From Thermoplasmata archaeon (GTDB lineage Archaea > Thermoplasmatota > Thermoplasmata > Thermoplasmatales > ARK-15): DNA of 64,000 nt. Position 1 is the first letter of the stretch. Each line of letters begins with the position of its first letter. Below are positions 43,026-50,846 of the stretch, in pieces. Location of the stretch: positions 101,361-165,360 of the forward strand of contig JAVYRZ010000001.1 of NCBI GenBank assembly GCA_038729465.1, given 5' to 3'. Under the pieces are notes generated by a model. That model searched no databases, had not been told where the DNA came from, and saw only the letters and a program-made list of their open reading frames with translations. A program made the translations under genes and the position numbers.

Positions 43026-43161
43026 TAAATTCACCTTTTTTATATAGAGAAATAATATTAATAATAAATACTTTTCTTAAATAAAAGAGCAATATCCTTT
43101 TTCATAAATTTTGTCTGATATTTATAGTCTTTCCGAAAATTGTTTAAACGTGGATAGTTAT

Positions 43162-44619
43162 ATGGGAGATGTGAATGAATTTTTAAGCAGAGCAAAATAC
43201 ATTGCTGAGCAGATAAAAAAAGAGAAAAAAGTGAAAGTTGTATCGCATATTGACGCAGATGGTATCTGTGCGGCAAGCATTGCTGTAAAAGCTTTACAGA
43301 ATGCAAATATTGAATATGACGTTCAGTTCGTAAAACAGTTTGACAATGCTATCATTGAGAAATTGAAAAATGAAAACGCACCAATGGTCTGGATCACAGA
43401 CTTGGGAAGTGGAAGCATCCATCTTCTTGGCGGTATAAATGCCGTAGTTACAGATCACCATGCGCCAAGTCAATTAAGCATTGAAGTTCCAAGAGAAAAA
43501 AGAAAAGACCTGAAAACATTTTTTGAAGAAATTGAACGGACTGAAATATTGCATTTAAACCCCCACTTATTTGGTAAAAACGGTGCAACTGACATAAGCG
43601 GAGCCGGAACAACATATCTTATTGCCAGAGAAATGGACAAAAAAAATGTAGAGATGTCTGCCATGGCTATAGTAGGGGCGGTGGGAGATCTACAAGATAC
43701 TGTATATTCTCGTTTAACAGGAACAAATAGAATTATATTGAAAGAAGGGAAGGATCACGGATATATTGATTACTTTATTGATGCCAGGTTTTTTGGTAAA
43801 GAAACAAGACCTATATATAAGATGTTGCAGTACAGTATGGATCCAGTCATTCCAACAATATCCAATGATCAGAATGGAGCTATTCAGTTTTTAGAAAAAT
43901 TAAACATACCTTTAAAAAATAATGAGAACTGGGTTCGTTGGATAGATATATCAATTGAAGATAAAAGAAAAGTTTTATCTGAATTAGCGATATTATTGTT
44001 AAAGATGGGGTATGGATCTTTAACAGTAGAGAGGTTGATAGGAGAAGTATATATTTTATCTAAAGAGAATTCAGGTACCCCGCTCAGGGATGCAAAAGAG
44101 TATGCTACCTTATTAAACTCATGCGGGAGGTATGACCAGGCAGAGATAGGTCTTAACGTTGCATTAGGAGATCGGGAGGAATACTACAAAAAAGCCATCA
44201 CGTTGCTGAATAGGCACAGAAAGACAATAGTAGACAGTATAAATGTAGTAAAAGATGTAGGTATAGTAAAACTTGAAAAAGTACAATATTTTCATGCAGG
44301 CAATAACATACCAGAAACAGTAGTGGGAACTGTTGCATCAATGGCACTCTCTTCAGGCATTGCTGATCCTGACATCCCTATAATAGGATTTGCAGAGACA
44401 GATAACGGAATGATCAAAGTATCTGTAAGAGCTCCTAGAGGAATGGTAGATAGGGGTTTAGATCTTTCAGAGGTAATGAGCTATGCCGCAAAACAAGTAG
44501 GTGGTTATGGTGGTGGTCATAACGTTGCAGCAGGTGCATCTATTCCACGTGGTAGAGAAGAGGAATTCATCACTATTGTAAATATAAAAATAGGCAAAAT
44601 GATTGAAAAAGTTAATTAA
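43162..44619 (+). CDS. Archaeal RecJ-like DHH/DHHA1 nuclease (RecJ/Cdc45/GAN family)
   Basis: DHH motifs VSHIDADGICAA, ITDLG, TDHH and the DHHA1 GGGHNVAAGA. ATG at 43162 preferred to the TTG at 43111. Confidence 0.75.
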   Translation: MGDVNEFLSRAKYIAEQIKKEKKVKVVSHIDADGICAASIAVKALQNANIEYDVQFVKQFDNAIIEKLKNENAPMVWITDLGSGSIHLLGGINAVVTDHHAPSQLSIEVPREKRKDLKTFFEEIERTEILHLNPHLFGKNGATDISGAGTTYLIAREMDKKNVEMSAMAIVGAVGDLQDTVYSRLTGTNRIILKEGKDHGYIDYFIDARFFGKETRPIYKMLQYSMDPVIPTISNDQNGAIQFLEKLNIPLKNNENWVRWIDISIEDKRKVLSELAILLLKMGYGSLTVERLIGEVYILSKENSGTPLRDAKEYATLLNSCGRYDQAEIGLNVALGDREEYYKKAITLLNRHRKTIVDSINVVKDVGIVKLEKVQYFHAGNNIPETVVGTVASMALSSGIADPDIPIIGFAETDNGMIKVSVRAPRGMVDRGLDLSEVMSYAAKQVGGYGGGHNVAAGASIPRGREEEFITIVNIKIGKMIEKVN

Positions 44620-44644
44620 TATTATTGATTTTAGAGATTTTATA

Positions 44645-44717
44645 GGGCCGGTAGATCAGCTGGTAGATCGTTTGCTTCGCAAGCAAAAGGCCTCGGGTTC
44701 AAATCCCGACCGGTCCA
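44645..44717 (+). tRNA. tRNA-Ala (anticodon CGC)
   Basis: Acceptor gggccgg/ccggtcc with the G3:U70 identity pair, anticodon stem tttgc/gcaaa with loop ttCGCaa, T arm tcggg-ttcaaat-cccga. Confidence 0.9.
44699..44717 (+). repeat. attL-like core: last 19 nt of tRNA-Ala (tcaaatcccgaccggtcca)
   Basis: Repeated at 47783-47801 with one mismatch. Confidence 0.8.
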
Positions 44718-45131
44718 TTTAGTAATTATTGGAATAATTTAAGTCTAGATTCTTTGAATATCTTAAAATGATTATCTAGAGTGTAAAAATTATAACAGTT
44801 ATCGATTGCATATATTTTGACCACTTTTTATATACCATTCTACGTGGGCTTATCATTCCTTATAATTTGATATAGTCTTATCAATATATTATGTATTGAG
44901 TATACATCATGTCCTTTATTTGGAAGATAAAGAAACATTCAGGAACACAACTTGAAAAGGTAGAATCTATATTTGAGAATGGACAAACAAGGCAGAAGGT
45001 CTATTACTACATAGGAAAGTAGATTGAAGGAAAGCCTGTTTAGAGAATTGTATCAAAATCCGTCAGAGTGAAGCTTTGGGCGGATCATACGTATGCACCA
45101 AAATGTGTGCATGTTAACTTTTGGTGATTGT

Positions 45132-45404
45132 ATGAACCTCGTGGAACGTTTCGTTATCATCCTCATTTCTTTCATTTCCCTGGGATTTTTTTATCAATAC
45201 AATATTGGAACAAACAACTTACCACTTTATTCAATTTTCCTTAGAATTCTGTGGTTAGAACTAACGATTAGCTTATTAGTATATACCGTATTTAAAATGG
45301 ACACGAAAAGATATCCATTCTTATTAGGCTTATTTACTTTTGGAGGTCTATGGTTTATTATTAAGCACAGAAATAAGCAAGTATGGTTTACTAAGCTAAG
45401 ATAG
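45132..45404 (+). CDS. Small membrane protein (about 3 TM), island cargo
   Basis: Hydrophobic segments FVIILISFISLGFF, ILWLELTISLLVYTVF and FLLGLFTFGGLWFII. The start is uncertain (track start 45093). Confidence 0.4.
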   Translation: MNLVERFVIILISFISLGFFYQYNIGTNNLPLYSIFLRILWLELTISLLVYTVFKMDTKRYPFLLGLFTFGGLWFIIKHRNKQVWFTKLR

Positions 45405-45590
45405 AGCAAAATTCCTTTATAAGGCCCTTTGTCGAAAAGTGTGTAACTTGAATATAAGCCGTTTGATCCGATTTTTATTTGATTTTATGCTTGTCGGTAA
45501 TATTTATATTGAAAACGATTTAAGCAATAAAACGCAGGTTTTATTTCAATTTCTTTGACATTTTCCGATACAAGAAAGTGTATGTAAAAA

Positions 45591-45603
45591 TTTATATATA
45601 AAA
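45591..45603 (+). promoter_or_regulatory. TATA-box-like element (tttatatataaaa) about 26 nt upstream of the 45622 ATG, compatible with a leaderless transcript
   Basis: Position and sequence relative to the ATG only. No experimental support. Confidence 0.35.
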
Positions 45604-45621
45604 TAGTCATATTTATATTGT

Positions 45622-46263
45622 ATGACTTGCAGTAATTGTTTTGATTCAAAGGGAAGGAAAATAACCAAGATAAGTGTACCACATACAGAGACCTATGAGC
45701 TCGGGAAAGCTAAAGCAACTGAGGGAGTTACTGTTGTGCAATTTAAGGAAGGCCCTGCGGCAATCCTCAACTGGAAATATATCATTGAGGGAGAAACTTC
45801 ATCAAACGCTTCAATTACATACATAATACAACACAACGGGAAAACAATAACAAACAAGTTCAAGACAAAGTATGTTGACACTATCAGTGGCAAAAAAATT
45901 GTTCATGTTGAAGGAAGTGGGTTGAGCTCAGATGGCAAAGTTACTATCACAAACAAGAATGTTGCTCTTTCAAACGTGAAATCAGACCCAAACGCTATTG
46001 AATGCCTTATTTGCCACGCACTTGGAACTGTGCTTTGTACCATTCTTGCTGATGGAGTTTCAGAAGATTTGGCTTGTGAAGAAGCATCAGCTATTGTTTG
46101 CCTAGAATTCATTGAGGACCCTATAGTTTATGTTGTCTGTTTTGGGGTTGTGGCATCTATCTGCGATGTTGTTCTTCAGACAATAATAGATATCGGTGTC
46201 CATGTGGCTTGCGAATTAGGTGCTGATTATATATGTGAGAAAGCAACGGGGTGCTCTCTGTGA
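45622..46263 (+). CDS. Halocin C8-like archaeocin precursor candidate: beta-rich N-terminal domain + hydrophobic C-terminal domain with 10 Cys
   Basis: 213 aa. Residues about 128-211 (CLICHALGTVLC...ACEE...IVC...VVC...SIC...VAC...YICEKATGC) contain exactly 10 Cys in a hydrophobic 84-aa stretch, resembling the 10-Cys mature HalC8 peptide as I recall it. Confidence 0.55.
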   Translation: MTCSNCFDSKGRKITKISVPHTETYELGKAKATEGVTVVQFKEGPAAILNWKYIIEGETSSNASITYIIQHNGKTITNKFKTKYVDTISGKKIVHVEGSGLSSDGKVTITNKNVALSNVKSDPNAIECLICHALGTVLCTILADGVSEDLACEEASAIVCLEFIEDPIVYVVCFGVVASICDVVLQTIIDIGVHVACELGADYICEKATGCSL

Positions 46264-46306
46264 TACATTTGAATAGCTATACTCACACATAAGAAGGTGT
46301 CTTTCT

Positions 46307-46834
46307 ATGAGGTATAGGTTGGTTTATATAGGTTTAGGCATCGCAATTATGGTTGTTGACACCGTGTTCGCTCTCAGATACCCACGAATCTTAATTTACA
46401 GTTTCTTTGGATCTTATATTGGATTCTTTATACCATTTGGAATAGGTCTATCAACTTTCCTGTATGGTGTATTTAAGGCACGGGATTACGGAATAAACAC
46501 TGCAATGGGGATTTTGGGCTCTGGAGGATTTACAAGGGTCCTGAGACAAAACAGAATACAAGGAACCAGAACATGGAAAACTGACCATGATATCCTCTCT
46601 GAACTTCCAGGTGCAGTAAAATCACCCGACGGAAAAACTGTAGAATACAGTAATCTCTTCATTAGAAAGCCCTATGGAACAACAAAATATTCAAGAAGAC
46701 TTAACGAAGCCGCTAATAAATACCTAAATGGTGAATTGGATGATGAAGGCTTTTATAAGTACATCGGAAAGCACGGTTCAAAAGAGGAGCAGATGCTCGA
46801 TTTCATTAAGAAATTTAAGAATGCTTATAAATGA
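46307..46834 (+). CDS. Membrane protein (3 N-terminal TM + about 90-aa basic soluble tail), island cargo
   Basis: ORF with the hydrophobic segments LVYIGLGIAIMVVDTVFAL, ILIYSFFGSYIGFFIPFGIGLSTFLYGVF. No recognised domain. Confidence 0.45.
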   Translation: MRYRLVYIGLGIAIMVVDTVFALRYPRILIYSFFGSYIGFFIPFGIGLSTFLYGVFKARDYGINTAMGILGSGGFTRVLRQNRIQGTRTWKTDHDILSELPGAVKSPDGKTVEYSNLFIRKPYGTTKYSRRLNEAANKYLNGELDDEGFYKYIGKHGSKEEQMLDFIKKFKNAYK

Positions 46835-46843
46835 AGTGGTAAA

Positions 46844-47092
46844 ATGGTTAGATTTCATCCAGTAAACCGGACAATGACAATTGGTACGTTCATGTTTATC
46901 GTATCTTTGATCGTGCTGGCAATTGGTTCTATATCCCATACCAATGGAACAGTCTTAGCTTACTGTTTTCTGTACGGAGGTCTTGCTTTCCTAGTCTCCT
47001 TAATCTTGTTGACAATAGGCTTAATACTGGGGGCTAGAAGCGGAAAGTTGCAAAGGAGAGGCAGTGATATATTCCACAAAGAGAAGAAATAA
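46844..47092 (+). CDS. Small 2-TM protein, island cargo
   Basis: 82 aa with hydrophobic segments TIGTFMFIVSLIVLAIG and AYCFLYGGLAFLVSLILLTIGLILGA. Confidence 0.45.
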   Translation: MVRFHPVNRTMTIGTFMFIVSLIVLAIGSISHTNGTVLAYCFLYGGLAFLVSLILLTIGLILGARSGKLQRRGSDIFHKEKK

Positions 47093-47130
47093 AATGTTTG
47101 TTAAGCATGTTAGAATAGCTTGGTGATAAA

Positions 47131-47388
47131 ATGAAAGATAAACTAGGTGAAGATGTTAGTCCTGTAAAGATAGGATTTTTCATTGCATTTGTAGTTGTAC
47201 TTGCCTTTGGACTAATTTCTGTGTTTATATTGCATTCACATATACTTGCTTTCATTACAATTCCTTTGATTTTCATACTCTTCATCATAACGGTCATTTT
47301 TCAATATAAAGATGTAAAAAGTGGTGCTTATCAGAGAAAGATGGACAAACTCTGGCAGAACACAAAGGATAAATATTATAGGAAGTGA
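47131..47388 (+). CDS. Small 2-TM protein, island cargo
   Basis: 85 aa with hydrophobic segments IGFFIAFVVVLAFGLISVFIL and ILAFITIPLIFILFIITVIF. Confidence 0.45.
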   Translation: MKDKLGEDVSPVKIGFFIAFVVVLAFGLISVFILHSHILAFITIPLIFILFIITVIFQYKDVKSGAYQRKMDKLWQNTKDKYYRK

Positions 47389-47633
47389 GAATTATGATAA
47401 ACTCTGAAAAAATCCTTTTGAAAGCGGGTATTTATGCCCTTCTCGTATATTCTCTTATTTCTATAGTATCGTATTTTGCACTTTACTTTAGAAAAATAGG
47501 TAATTTTACAAACTTGCTGAATTCTGGTATCGATGTTTTGCTTTTCATTCCGCTGTATGTAATAATTTTAGTATTGTATTTCTCCTACATCAGGGTAATC
47601 GATAGAAATGGTCAACATGGAAAAACTCTGTGA
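47385..47633 (+). CDS. Small 2-TM protein, island cargo
   Basis: 82 aa. 4-nt overlap with the preceding ORF. Hydrophobic segments AGIYALLVYSLISIVSYFALYF and VLLFIPLYVIILVLYF. Confidence 0.45.
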   Translation: MRIMINSEKILLKAGIYALLVYSLISIVSYFALYFRKIGNFTNLLNSGIDVLLFIPLYVIILVLYFSYIRVIDRNGQHGKTL

Positions 47634-47778
47634 AAGCTTAAAAGACGGAAACCTATAAACTCAAATAATAACCTGGAATTTCCATTAATGGATAAGAATC
47701 AGGTCTAAGTGTAATTCAAAATATTTTATTGCTTTATTTTAGGTAATAGATCCTTATTTTTAGTATCCCCTTAAAACT

Positions 47779-48257
47779 TTAATCAAATACCGACCGGTCC
47801 ACACCATCCAGATCCACTAGTTTTTGTACTGTCAGAAAAAAGTTCGATTTTCTCACCTCGTTTATGGCGTCATCTCGAGATGGATGCAGATAGATCTGCG
47901 TACTAGACAGGTTTCTATGCCTAATAATAGAGCAACATAATAGACAGACAGTCCTTTTTTCAATAATTCTGTGGCATAGGTATGCCTGGCCATATGCAGG
48001 TGAAACTTGACCTCAGCTTTTAAGGATATACGTTCGCAGAGGCTTCTGAAATAGTCATACCTCATCTTTCCTATTTTTGTAGTGAAAAGATACTTTTTAG
48101 TAGTGTGTAATCTCACTTTCAGATACTCATCAATTGCATATCTGAATGCGACACACAACATAATGAAAAAAGCAATTTCCGAAGCATTTAGAGGCGGGAT
48201 AGAGAGTATTGGGTTATACCCGCAAAATTTAAGCATCAAAGAGATTATAACTTTCAA
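47779..48257 (-). pseudogene. Tyrosine recombinase (integrase) remnant: N-terminally truncated and frameshifted
   Basis: The track ORF carries HLHMARHTYATELLKKG...LLLG. After an apparent 1-nt deletion near 47919/47920, the adjacent frame reads HRNLSSTQIYLH (box II with catalytic Tyr codon at 47890-47892). That frame continues through the att repeat to a stop at 47779-47781. Confidence 0.75.
47783..47801 (+). repeat. attR-like copy of the tRNA-Ala 3' end (tcaaataccgaccggtcca, 18/19 identical)
   Basis: Direct comparison with 44699-44717. It lies inside the 3' coding end of the integrase pseudogene. Confidence 0.8.
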
Positions 48258-48367
48258 AGATGGCTGTTAACATGGTTAACAAAAATCATAACCTGGTCAT
48301 TGAGAAGACAGGAAAGCATAAAATTAATATTCTCAAAAAGGTTTAGGTCATTGTCAAGTAAACCTTT

Positions 48368-48772
48368 TTGATAGAAGGAAAGAAGATAGATATGACAGGT
48401 TGGTATTTTGATCATTCAAAAGGAAAGCAAGTATTTGGTTTGCAGCTAGTTAATTCTGTTTATTCGGAGGGCTATGGAATATATCCAATAATATTAACAC
48501 CTTACAAAAAAAATAACAGCACAGAGAAATACAGATCAAAAATAGAGAATCAAAAAGATAACATCAAAAAGTGTTTAGATAACAATTTGAAATTTAGCAC
48601 AGTAGTAATGGATAACTGGTATTTTAGTAATGATTCAGTGCAATATATAGAATCATTTAGGGAGAGCAGGGTTGCAGAGACGAAACTAAATCGATTAATT
48701 AACGTAGCTGATGAATTAGTAAAGAAGAGTATTTCAAATGCATATAAATCAACAATGGCGTTAAAAACATGA
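48368..48772 (+). pseudogene. DDE transposase fragment (IS4/IS701-like), truncated
   Basis: 134 aa containing the VVMDNWYFSNDSV-type second-Asp region and a GWYFDHSKGK segment. Full-length enzymes are about three times longer. Out-of-frame debris (LVIEKTGKH) lies upstream at about 48272-48343. Confidence 0.5.
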
Positions 48773-48797
48773 AAAACGCAAAATAGCAGTAAATAAT

Positions 48798-50846
48798 ATG
48801 AAAATTGATGAAATAGACTTACCGGATAATATTCTGGAGATATTCAAAAAAGAGGGTTTAAATGAGCTTTATCCTCCTCAAGTAGATGCCGTGCCTAAAA
48901 TTTTTGAAGGCAAAAATTTAGTGGTTGCAATACCGACAGCAAGTGGCAAGAGTCTTTTAGCCTATTTAGCAATATTGCGTGGATTTTTGAGAGGTATGAA
49001 GTCTATTTATGTAGTTCCATTGAGAGCACTAGCATCTGAAAAATATGAGGATCTCAAAAAATTTGAGGCGATAGGATTAAATGTAAAACTAGCAATTGGT
49101 AACTACGATTCATCTACTAACAGTGTTAAAGATGCAGATGTAGTGGTAGCCACGTCTGAAAAATTTGATTCGTTGATTCGTCATGATTTTAACTATCTTT
49201 ACGATCTTGGAGTTATAGTGATTGATGAAATACATCTGTTAAAAGATCCGGATAGGGGGCCAACATTAGAAATGATTTTAACGAAAATAAAATCACTTAA
49301 TACAAATGCTCAACTAATTGCATTATCTGCCACCATAAAAAATTATAAAGAGCTTGCAAAGTGGCTCAATGCGGAGTATATATATAGTGAATTCAGACCA
49401 GTACCTTTGAAAGTTGGTATCTATGAGCCTGCAGAAGAATTGTTGAGATTTGGTACAGGAGAGATGATAGAGGTAGTACCAGACAAGTTAGTTATTGGGA
49501 ATTTGGTTAGTCGTGCTCTAGAAAACGAAGGACAGGTACTGATATTTGTTAATACTAGAAATGCTGCAGAGAATCTTGCAGAGATGCTAAGGAATAAAGC
49601 AAGCAAATATATCAAAAGCAAGGTAGTTTATGAACCGACTGATGAAAATGTTTATGATGAAAAAATAAAAGAGAATATATCCTATGGTGTTTGTTTTCAT
49701 CATGCTGGTTTGTCTAATAAGCAGAGAAAAGAGATTGAGGACATGTTTAAGGCAAGGAAGATAAAGATACTAACTGCAACGCCTACGCTTGCAGCGGGGG
49801 TAAATTTACCATCAAGAACAGTCATAGTTAGAGACATCACTAGATTTGATGGCGGGAGATCAGTAAGGATTCCTTACATAGAATTAAAACAGATGTTAGG
49901 CAGAGCTGGAAGGCCAAAATATGATAAATATGGAGAGGCAATAATAGTTTCCAAAAAAAGCGACCTAGATTTTGAAGAACTAGAGGAAATAGAGGAAATA
50001 GAGTCATATTTAGGAGATATGACCACATTGAAAAATAACCTATTAGGATTGATATCATCAGGGATGGTAAAGACAGAGCTTGAAATTTATGATTTTTTTA
50101 GAAAGAGTTTTTATGGGCTCAGTGAGGATGTCAAGGTACTAGAGTCACATATTTCTGAATTATTGAGTTTTTTGGAAGAGCATGGGTTCATTGAAAACAA
50201 AAGGATCATAAAGGCCACAGTATTTGGCAAGAAAGTTTCTGATCTTTACATAAGTCCAGATACAGCACTTTTGTATAGAGATTCTTTCGATTATAACTAT
50301 GATCAGTTAAGTGTATTATACACTATATCAGATAGCTTGGAAATGATCCCATTATTCTGCAAAAAGACAGAAATAGAAGGTTTGGATTTTATAAAAAACA
50401 AGAAGATAGAAGAAAAATGCGAGTTTTTTAAGGATAGAGAAATAGATTATAACTCTTTAAAGACTGCGTTAATGTTATCAGACTGGATCAATGAACTAAG
50501 CATTGATCAGATAATATACAGATATGTGATAGGACCCGGTGACATACATTCAAAAGTTGAAATTGCAGAATGGTTACTATACTCTTATCTAGAGCTTGGC
50601 AGGGTTGAAAGATATAAACATTTAGAAAATGTAAAAGAACTGTGGGAGCGAGTAAAATACGGGACATCACGGGAATTAATCCCATTAACTGAAATAAAGG
50701 GAGTTGGGAGAGTTAGAGCAAGAAGGCTGTACGATGCAGGGTTCATAGACTTGCAGGCAATCAAAAATGCCAGTGTTGAAGATCTGGCGAGAATACCTGG
50801 CATTGGATTATCACTAGCCAATAGCATTAAGAAGCAGGTTGAGTAA
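48798..50846 (+). CDS. hel308: Ski2-like DNA helicase Hel308/Hjm
   Basis: 682 aa with AIPTASGKS, DEIH, SAT, HHAGL, TPTLAAGVNLP and QMLGRAGRP motifs and a C-terminal HhH domain (GIGLSLANSI). Confidence 0.9.
   Translation: MKIDEIDLPDNILEIFKKEGLNELYPPQVDAVPKIFEGKNLVVAIPTASGKSLLAYLAILRGFLRGMKSIYVVPLRALASEKYEDLKKFEAIGLNVKLAIGNYDSSTNSVKDADVVVATSEKFDSLIRHDFNYLYDLGVIVIDEIHLLKDPDRGPTLEMILTKIKSLNTNAQLIALSATIKNYKELAKWLNAEYIYSEFRPVPLKVGIYEPAEELLRFGTGEMIEVVPDKLVIGNLVSRALENEGQVLIFVNTRNAAENLAEMLRNKASKYIKSKVVYEPTDENVYDEKIKENISYGVCFHHAGLSNKQRKEIEDMFKARKIKILTATPTLAAGVNLPSRTVIVRDITRFDGGRSVRIPYIELKQMLGRAGRPKYDKYGEAIIVSKKSDLDFEELEEIEEIESYLGDMTTLKNNLLGLISSGMVKTELEIYDFFRKSFYGLSEDVKVLESHISELLSFLEEHGFIENKRIIKATVFGKKVSDLYISPDTALLYRDSFDYNYDQLSVLYTISDSLEMIPLFCKKTEIEGLDFIKNKKIEEKCEFFKDREIDYNSLKTALMLSDWINELSIDQIIYRYVIGPGDIHSKVEIAEWLLYSYLELGRVERYKHLENVKELWERVKYGTSRELIPLTEIKGVGRVRARRLYDAGFIDLQAIKNASVEDLARIPGIGLSLANSIKKQVE

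Follow-up and report, generated by a model that had tools for sequence, protein, structure and literature searches.

How did 4 kb of DNA holding no housekeeping gene come to lie between a tRNA gene and hel308 in a Thermoplasmata archaeon, and what does it carry? The locus lies in a 64,000-nucleotide (nt) stretch of contig JAVYRZ010000001.1 (assembly GCA_038729465.1, forward strand), referred to here as the window. An original prediction, made from the bare sequence, had described a tRNA-Ala integration hotspot in which a repeat of the tRNA 3' end bounds a cargo of 3.1 kb and is followed by an integrase remnant and insertion sequence (IS) debris, and it had named two possible histories: two successive integrations, with a decayed older element and an integrase-less cargo, or a single rearranged element. 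The explanation that best accounts for the locus as a whole, and that we regard as probable, is that the block is accessory DNA, built up as two or more elements integrated site-specifically at the 3' end of the tRNA gene, and that its cargo is a toxin-immunity cassette.

The empty site that had been predicted, with tRNA-Ala directly followed by hel308, was found when 41 genomes (40 relatives and the window's own, G000) were searched with positions 43800-49800 of the window. The whole block of 4,080 bp from tRNA-Ala(CGC) to hel308 is absent from both of the two same-genus genomes, in which the tRNA and hel308 are 6-11 nt apart: in G001 only CTATCAAAAAT stands between the tRNA end and the hel308 ATG, and on contig C7 of G002 the two genes are separated by 6 nt. 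The RecJ-like gene on the left flank is 92-94% identical to its counterparts in G001 and G002 at the nucleotide level. In G002 this gene lies on a different contig, C82, which ends one base before the tRNA-Ala 3' end and overlaps C7 by ~126 nt. This break would fit a branching of the assembly graph where the insert enters and may stem from a mixed population with and without the insert.

The 19-nt repeat, TCAAATCCCGACCGGTCCA, is the 3' end of the tRNA and recurs 3.07 kb downstream with a single mismatch, a C to A change at position 7, as originally described. These are the only two matches in the window at up to three mismatches, and none occurred in 100 dinucleotide shuffles; a third, degenerate copy, for which a search of 48258-48797 had been proposed, is absent from the entire window at this threshold. 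Six open reading frames (ORFs) of 103, 213, 175, 82, 85 and 82 amino acids (aa) lie between the two copies, all on the plus strand and none of them a housekeeping gene, which bears out the earlier description of the cargo; housekeeping genes do resume with hel308. The features of the locus are as follows.

43111-44619, plus strand: RecJ-like DHH/DHHA1 protein, left housekeeping flank (Pfam DHH_CID 6.6e-29, DHHA1 1.1e-14)
44645-44717, plus strand: tRNA-Ala(CGC), the integration target (ARAGORN; Rfam tRNA model, 70 bits)
44699-44717, plus strand: proximal 19-nt core (attL), the tRNA 3' end (repeat search)
44718-47782, plus strand: mini-element without integrase, 3,065 bp (from empty sites and type of right end)
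44718-44740, plus strand: left end of the mini-element (weak likeness to the sequence after tRNA-Ala in G033, G036 and G031)
45093-45404, plus strand: p103, small membrane protein (ORF)
45591-45598, plus strand: TATA-like box, ~28 nt before the p213 ATG (read from the sequence)
45622-46263, plus strand: p213, putative halocin-C8-like precursor (TIGR04449, AlphaFold2 model)
46307-46834, plus strand: p175, two N-terminal transmembrane helices and a soluble C-terminal domain (synteny with type A toxin genes)
46844-47092, plus strand: p82a, two-transmembrane protein, candidate immunity protein (synteny with p213 genes)
47131-47388, plus strand: p85, distant paralogue of p82a, candidate orphan immunity gene (hhalign, synteny with type B toxin genes)
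47385-47633, plus strand: p82b, small membrane protein (ORF)
47760-47782, plus strand: right arm of the mini-element, containing GTATCCCCTTAAAACTTTAA (47763-47782; arm search in G033 and G132)
47783-47801, plus strand: distal 19-nt core, attR of the mini-element and former attL of the older element (repeat search)
47779-48135, minus strand: XerA-like tyrosine integrase remnant (PF00589, NF040815)
48140-48295, plus strand: probable 3' end of an IS200/IS605 tnpB and sequence past its stop (repeats in the genome, PF07282 in one copy)
48368-48772, plus strand: IS701-family transposase fragment (NF049921)
48798-50846, plus strand: hel308, right housekeeping flank (Pfam DEAD, Helicase_dom4_arc, HHH_5)

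Relatives of the cargo lead to a family of larger elements that use the same site. Positions 45581-47073 of the window match G033 and G036 at 76% and G031 at 73% nucleotide identity; all three genomes belong to other families of the same order, and the matches in G033 and G036 lie near a tRNA-Ala. In G033 an intact tyrosine integrase of 430 aa is encoded 50 nt past tRNA-Ala(CGC), on the same strand as the tRNA. It is followed by homologues of p213, p175 and p82a (87, 79 and 66% amino-acid identity) and, past this cassette, by an AAA_10-like ATPase, ParA, a serine resolvase and an Orc/Cdc6-like AAA protein, with the next core copy 19.2 kb away; full-size members of the family (19 kb) are plasmid-like. 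At up to two mismatches there are 13 core copies in G033, six in G036, three in G031 and three in G000, those of G033 being arranged in two arrays that start at tRNA-Ala(TGC) and tRNA-Ala(CGC). The arrays (G033:C1, 56305-99776 and 1711488-1763504) are long tandem series of att-bounded units, many of which measure 0.7-2 kb and have kept their right arm.

This right arm of ~20 nt links the window's cargo to the family. It precedes all 12 distal cores in the three G033 stretches examined, and the right arm and core of the window (47760-47801) match each of these 12 copies at 83-95%; five further arm-plus-core sites are present in G132. The arm is unique in the window's own genome, where another candidate, with two mismatches and located in a coding stretch without core or tRNA, was rejected as a chance match. 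The C-to-A variant of the core is also found in one G033 distal copy, and it may have arrived with the attP of the element and not have arisen by later change. At the left end, BLAST matches to G033, G036 and G031 extend past the tRNA to 44739-44740. A separate nucleotide match in this left region, of 73%, is to G024 and covers 44850-45039 around a 37-aa ORF (44909-45023).

The extent of the unit is further outlined by copies in other surroundings. G064 holds positions 46285-47780 at 92% nucleotide identity, stopping 2 nt short of the core; here the arm is followed by different sequence, and neither a tRNA nor a core is present within 20 kb. In run X4, contigs of ~90% likeness span 44714-45590 and 46289-47802 before passing into another flank. 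Downstream of the G064 cassette (C8, 13498-14610), a single short peptide recurs again and again in the ORF translations. An array of DNA repeats is the likely cause, and Cas-like ORFs appear to lie beyond it.

Several observations weigh against reading 44718-47782 as an integrated member of this family. The first 23 nt agree with the sequence after the tRNA in G033, G036 and G031 at only ~17 of 23 positions, and they are AT-rich. Neither the ORF list nor Pfam yields an integrase ORF or remnant between the repeats, and the G033 integrase has no match in the window by tblastn. The window's own genome has no integrase of the 430-aa family specific for tRNA-Ala; the family is represented there by an intact 426-aa integrase with 62% identity beside tRNA-Leu(TAG) (G000:C14, 9722-11149) and by two broken copies near tRNA-Arg and tRNA-Val. 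No excised or empty form, that is, no joint across 44718-47782, is found in the contigs of the best-matching run, X1, contigs being prone to drop rare variants. Finally, the shift in composition that the original prediction proposed to look for is missing from the GC content, which is 0.342 in the mini-element and 0.338 in the window (50th percentile of like-sized windows), and the tetranucleotide distance reaches only the 93rd percentile. The contig with the intact 426-aa integrase ends 1.5 kb past this gene, and another, perhaps active, element may be located there.

The right arm and core, the shared cassette, the extent of the matches and the lack of any integrase trace together lead us to regard 44718-47782 as a derivative of the family, 3,065 bp long and, as no integrase lies within its repeats, non-autonomous. 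It may have shrunk in place or have arrived small.

The distribution of the cassette points to its origin. A profile of the p213 family detects the gene in 15 of the order's 169 genomes; the window's own family is represented by 15 other genomes, and all of these lack it. When 401 genomes from across the phylum were scanned with TIGR04449, the halocin-C8 family model, three matched, and each of them belongs to this order. The nearest relatives of the cassette, at 89-92% nucleotide identity, occur in two other families, whereas the housekeeping flanks match by only 65-70% within the same family. Given this contrast and the patchy presence of the gene, the cassette is, by sequence comparison, a horizontal acquisition.

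What the cassette encodes is indicated primarily by p213. This protein aligns with TIGR04449 over the full profile (positions 1-69 of 69), with 22.2 bits for the whole ORF and 24.3 bits in a six-frame scan of the genome, the cut-off being 24. An exhaustive search without profiles retrieved 16 representative proteins at E <= 0.001. In an alignment of 13 sequences (p213, nine representatives and three close homologues), ten cysteines are invariant in all 13, a number that we take to be that of halocin C8 itself, and TIGR04449 matches 12 of the 13 at E <= 0.01 (best E 6.6e-11). A paralogue of ~206 aa, here called type B to distinguish it from the p213-like type A, is encoded in G033, G036, G031, G151 and G156 and reaches 55 bits against the same cut-off of 24. 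Haloferax volcanii was the sole match when 14 control genomes were scanned with this model. Searches with p213 alone among viral contigs gave no relative, and in a PHROGs scan the cargo was without match, the integrase remnant being the only gene to obtain one. The TATA-like box ahead of p213 could act as an archaeal promoter and would then give rise to a leaderless mRNA. A scan for sigma-70 promoters and terminators stayed at chance level with models unsuited to archaea and was set aside.

In an AlphaFold2 model of p213 built on the family alignment (predicted local distance difference test, pLDDT, 76.7), an eight-strand beta domain (residues 1-116) is joined through a linker of low confidence (118-124) to a C-terminal domain of five helices (~125-213). 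For this last domain of the predicted model, Foldseek returned saposin A (4uex_A) with probability 0.98, a template-modelling score of 0.76 and a root-mean-square deviation (rmsd) of 2.4. VIA-align superposed residues 123-213 of the same model on caenopore-5 (Z 8.2, rmsd 2.6, 80/81 aligned), granulysin (Z 7.8, rmsd 2.7, 74/74), saposin D (Z 7.0, rmsd 2.9, 77/77) and NK-lysin (Z 6.3, rmsd 3.0, 77/78), Z values that, as the tool warns, can also be reached by helical bundles. The sequence identity to these saposin-like structures is only 15-19%, and a search of the PDB with the single sequence gave no match; the family profile matched prosaposin and saposin A at E 8e-4. We accept the fold because three methods agree; the C-terminal domain of p213 is predicted to be halocin-C8-like with a saposin fold. 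The N-terminal domain obtained only generic beta-meander matches to pieces of barrels, and no fold is claimed for it. Taken together, p213 is a probable archaeal bacteriocin (archaeocin).

The genes next to p213 were followed through 19 loci examined with the window's cargo proteins. Nine copies of the cassette contain a full-length type A gene free of stops (G000, three in G132, G156, G036 copy 1, G151, G033 and G092), and a p82a homologue follows in all nine. Two of the G132 copies form a tandem duplication of p213, p175 and p82a on contig C8 that repeats every 1,992 nt; the third is on C89. At four other loci (G073, G064, G031 and G036 copy 2) the toxin gene is truncated or deleted and p175 and p82a are full length; what is left of the toxin are residues 1-130 in G073, residues 1-56 with a stop in G064 and a version with an in-frame internal deletion in G031. 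Contigs of three runs likewise lack most of p213, jumping from 45590 to 46289 in X4, from 45782 to 46285 in X2 and from 45783 to 46279 in X3. The last two deletions may be one event, and there are at least four distinct deletion endpoints. Run X3 is an RNA library, and its contigs cover p175, p82a and p85 at ~90% likeness, a weak hint at transcription in a relative with a toxin-deleted copy. Among the other loci, one on contig C46 of G022 encodes a toxin homologue that consists of the domain alone, with a p82a homologue behind it, in G144 a p82a-like gene lies next to a toxin remnant, G021 retains remnants only, G081 encodes a divergent toxin homologue, and G022:C21 and G068 gave no cargo matches.

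Loss of the toxin gene with retention of the small membrane genes occurs, the opposite combination does not, and this suggests that the small membrane genes confer immunity: p82a is a candidate cognate immunity protein, and p175 a candidate partner in immunity or processing. A similar role may be assigned to p85, whose homologue follows the type B gene in all five loci and which is related to p82a (hhalign probability 74%, E 2.8e-5; a common basic C-terminal motif). In the window it has no type B partner, and it is therefore a candidate orphan immunity gene against a toxin type absent from its own genome. The two remaining small membrane proteins, p82b and p103, are unrelated to p82a and p85. 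A homologue of p82b with 84% identity is encoded in G064; p103 is present in contigs of run X4 at ~90% likeness and was without family match in the Pfam, NCBIfam and PHROGs scans. Relatives of p175 form 36 clusters, all of them annotated as hypothetical, with source names that include Thermoplasma, Acidiplasma and Ferroplasma, and the ESM Atlas held no usable match to this protein. One p175 homologue, 88% identical and on a contig of 236 kb, bears the source name Metallosphaera, from another phylum, and is to be explained either by transfer between phyla or by misbinning.

Under the proposed mode of action p213 would be a precursor from which the ten-cysteine, saposin-fold C-terminal domain is released to permeabilise the membranes of competing archaea; p82a, perhaps together with p175, would protect the producer, and p85 would add immunity to a related type of toxin for which the genome has no gene. 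The low-confidence linker between the two domains of p213 is the only hint at such a cleavage. A number of findings speak against this interpretation. The score of p213 itself lies only at the TIGR04449 cut-off, and the HalI immunity domain PF22862 is absent from its Pfam matches at E <= 0.1. Full-length p175 is present at only eight of the nine intact type A loci, the G092 copy being broken by a run of N, and the p175 model is poor (pLDDT 58). The pattern of retained membrane genes is drawn from related, non-independent loci, and all the RNA-library contigs come from a relative, none from the window's organism. Furthermore, no Sec or twin-arginine translocation (Tat) signal is recognisable by eye at the N-termini of p213 and the type B proteins, which are polar and without a hydrophobic stretch, the cassette has no transporter gene, and p82a and p85 weakly match the holin family Phage_holin_3_6, with sub-threshold E values of 0.0075 and 0.037.

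These last three findings, and the fact that the cassette is carried by plasmid-like elements, would also suit an intracellular function, with p213 as a plasmid-addiction or abortive-infection toxin and a membrane protein as its antitoxin, or with p82a and p85 in a holin-like role in a lysis system. We nevertheless find such a function rather unlikely. Ten invariant cysteines and a saposin-like fold point to a disulfide-locked extracellular protein, the retention of the membrane genes after loss of the toxin, seen at four loci and in contigs of three runs, is what immunity to an external toxin would lead one to expect and is hard to reconcile with a holin or antitoxin deprived of its partner, and a p85-type gene is present in a genome that lacks the corresponding toxin type.

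Beyond the distal core lies a second, decayed layer. On the minus strand, integrase homology runs from ~48135 down to a stop codon at 47779-47781 (PF00589, E 2.6e-7, 31 bits against a cut-off of 27.1, profile positions 75-155 of 172), and archaeal XerA is the best of the NCBIfam models (NF040815, 1e-11). The remnant that had been placed at 47779-48257 is therefore real, but it was drawn too long, since 48140-48257 is antisense to a probable TnpB fragment. Only the C-terminal third has survived, the N-terminal two thirds being absent by comparison with a 287-aa relative; a frameshift near 47913-47920 puts the HxxR box and the segment with the catalytic tyrosine into different frames, and the last seven codons are encoded by the 19-nt core. 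Judged by these defects, the integrase is a pseudogene.

Similar remnants in the same genome directly adjoin tRNA-Ala(TGC) (C2, 603-940) and tRNA-Ala(GGC) (C7, 1410-1664), with no cargo in between and with flanks past the core that are near-identical to that in the window. At all three genes the remnant reads antisense into the tRNA 3' end, so that every one of the CGC, TGC and GGC tRNA-Ala genes bears an integrase scar, and the one at tRNA-Ala(TGC) is also present in both sister species, G001 and G002. Relatives of this integrase adjoin tRNAs at six of eight loci examined, among them an intact 287-aa protein in G143 whose gene overlaps tRNA-Ala(GGC) with its 3' end. The genome-wide count of such relatives is uninformative by itself, as the search also catches the chromosomal XerA (162 of 169 genomes).

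The IS debris that had been noticed beyond the distal core consists of two unrelated fragments. The first cuts off the integrase remnant at 48140 and is a piece of 156 nt that probably comprises, according to an alignment of its copies, the last codons of tnpB and a conserved sequence past the stop. The same genome has four other full-length copies (86-88%) and three partial ones (75-91%); in one of the full-length copies the ORF encodes a C-terminal piece that matches PF07282 at 2.8e-10, and the 62-aa ORF of the window's own fragment has no Pfam match. An Rfam scan of 44000-49000 found the tRNA as its sole match, and this multi-copy repeat of 160 nt is consequently no known RNA family. Copies of ~160 nt occur in other genera as well (73-85%), several as stand-alone 3' ends. 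The second fragment, correctly recognised as part of a transposase, can be assigned to the IS701 family (NF049921, E 1.8e-17, 63.7 bits against a cut-off of 250, profile positions 76-185 of 318).

With both layers described, the history that we favour can be laid out. An element with a XerA-like integrase would first have integrated at tRNA-Ala(CGC) and decayed. An element with a 430-aa integrase, or a small derivative of one moved in trans, would next have recombined with the regenerated tRNA, pushing the wreck of the older integrase downstream, and its own integrase would have been lost or never been present, leaving an att-bounded, non-autonomous mini-element. The right arm and core, the cargo-free remnants and the empty sites support the two integrations, with a decayed older element and an integrase-less cargo, that the original prediction had offered as one of its histories. 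Weaknesses of this account are that no right-hand core of the older element is found in the window, which makes the borders of that element and the way it entered conjectural, and that the order of the two insertions is a matter of likelihood.

It is unlikely, in our view, that the order was the reverse, with the mini-element arriving first and the element with the XerA-like integrase entering later at the distal core. This core would be a valid target too, and the integrase would read into it in the same geometry either way. The integrase element is, on the other hand, truncated, frameshifted and invaded by two IS fragments, whereas all six ORFs of the cargo are open, which would agree with a greater age of the wreck; the rate of decay is, however, a weak clock. 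That remnant, IS pieces and cargo once formed one island, in which a rearrangement put a core mid-way, is very improbable: the parts are contiguous, are all absent from the sister genomes and show no right-hand core to mark off an older element, but the inner core is preceded by the family's right arm as at true element ends elsewhere, the autonomous relatives of the cargo use a different integrase, of 430 aa, beside the tRNA, on its strand and at the opposite end, of which the window has no trace, the XerA-like remnant adjoins two other tRNA-Ala genes without cargo, and each of the two kinds of element is seen alone.

A wider scenario, which we put forward tentatively and hold to be possible, would make the 3-kb unit a toxin-immunity mini-island moved by integrases of the same family that belong to resident or incoming elements. 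A leaderless, saposin-fold archaeocin and two-transmembrane immunity genes, combined in a mix-and-match manner, might in this way spread across Thermoplasmatales families. Repeated loss of the toxin gene from cassettes that keep their immunity genes would then reflect an interplay of producers, resistant and sensitive strains in archaeal populations, with the tRNA-Ala arrays as storage.

Integration into tRNA 3' ends is textbook knowledge, and the hotspot adds only another well-documented archaeal example to it: an ordinary, well-preserved site with an empty counterpart, tandem layers and a conserved element end. What is gained in addition is the recognition of an att-bounded unit without integrase whose cargo is a probable archaeocin with putative immunity genes. 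Integrase-less derivatives flanked by att sites are known as cis-mobilizable elements (CIMEs) from the sites of integrative and conjugative elements in Streptococcus thermophilus, and tandem accretion is known at tRNA genes. The window shares with CIMEs the targeting of the 3' end of a gene, tandem units separated by cores, one unit with att sites and without recombination genes, and a decayed neighbour. It differs in its archaeal host, in the tRNA target, in autonomous relatives that are plasmid-like and use the 430-aa integrase, and in that mobilisation is here only proposed. The archaeal integrases that target tRNAs are either of the non-partitioning (pNOB8) type or of the SSV type, the genes of the latter being split by integration. 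Both kinds of integrase met here resemble these types in using the tRNA 3' end and duplicating their target. The gene for the 430-aa integrase, which starts ~50 nt past the tRNA, is an intact ORF in the integrated state; unlike in the SSV type, neither integrase is split, and the XerA-like gene overlaps the core with its last codons.

As for the toxin, the C-terminal domain of p213 superposes, as a predicted fold, on saposin-like proteins (SAPLIPs) such as caenopore-5, granulysin and NK-lysin. It differs from them in its ten cysteines, saposins having six, and in the low sequence identity noted above, and the comparison is that of a predicted model. Many members of the order have no cell wall, which makes a membrane-active toxin a plausible weapon among them. 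To our knowledge, antimicrobial proteins of archaea have so far been described in hardly any groups other than haloarchaea and Sulfolobales.

Islands in the genomes of acidophilic Thermoplasmatales have been described as associated with tRNAs, integrases and IS elements, as showing little GC contrast and as drawing on a gene pool shared between genera, with a bias towards tRNA-Leu and tRNA-Val in the accessible parts of these surveys (PMC5155288, PMC12302457). The same parts describe neither tRNA-Ala arrays nor a bacteriocin-like cargo; the words halocin and bacteriocin do not occur in the accessible text of PMC12302457, and halocins are likewise unmentioned in that of PMC5155288. Among the papers accessible to our search, none connects halocins with this order or halocin C8 with the saposin fold; the survey of Makarova et al. 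(2019) may cover part of this ground.

The closest functional parallel to p213 is ProC8, the halocin C8 precursor of Natrinema, which the accessible part of a recent preprint presents as a Tat-secreted protein with the HalI immunity protein as its N-terminal part and the toxin as its C-terminal 76 aa (bioRxiv 10.64898/2026.07.27.741052). Within what that source conveys, p213 agrees with ProC8 in a C-terminal domain that covers the whole of TIGR04449, at a score close to the cut-off, and in a two-part layout with a linker of low confidence. It differs in having no Tat signal by eye and no HalI Pfam domain, and its locus contains small two-transmembrane proteins downstream in place of halR, halU and ABC transporter neighbours. 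The hosts are non-halophilic, the runs containing this stretch being labelled as hot-spring metagenomes, and the gene resides on integrative elements. With p213, a domain that resembles halocin C8 and is predicted to fold like a saposin is seen in another archaeal order and on mobile elements, next to candidate immunity genes that are directly testable. Compared with the known systems, the hotspot is ordinary and its cargo moderately novel.

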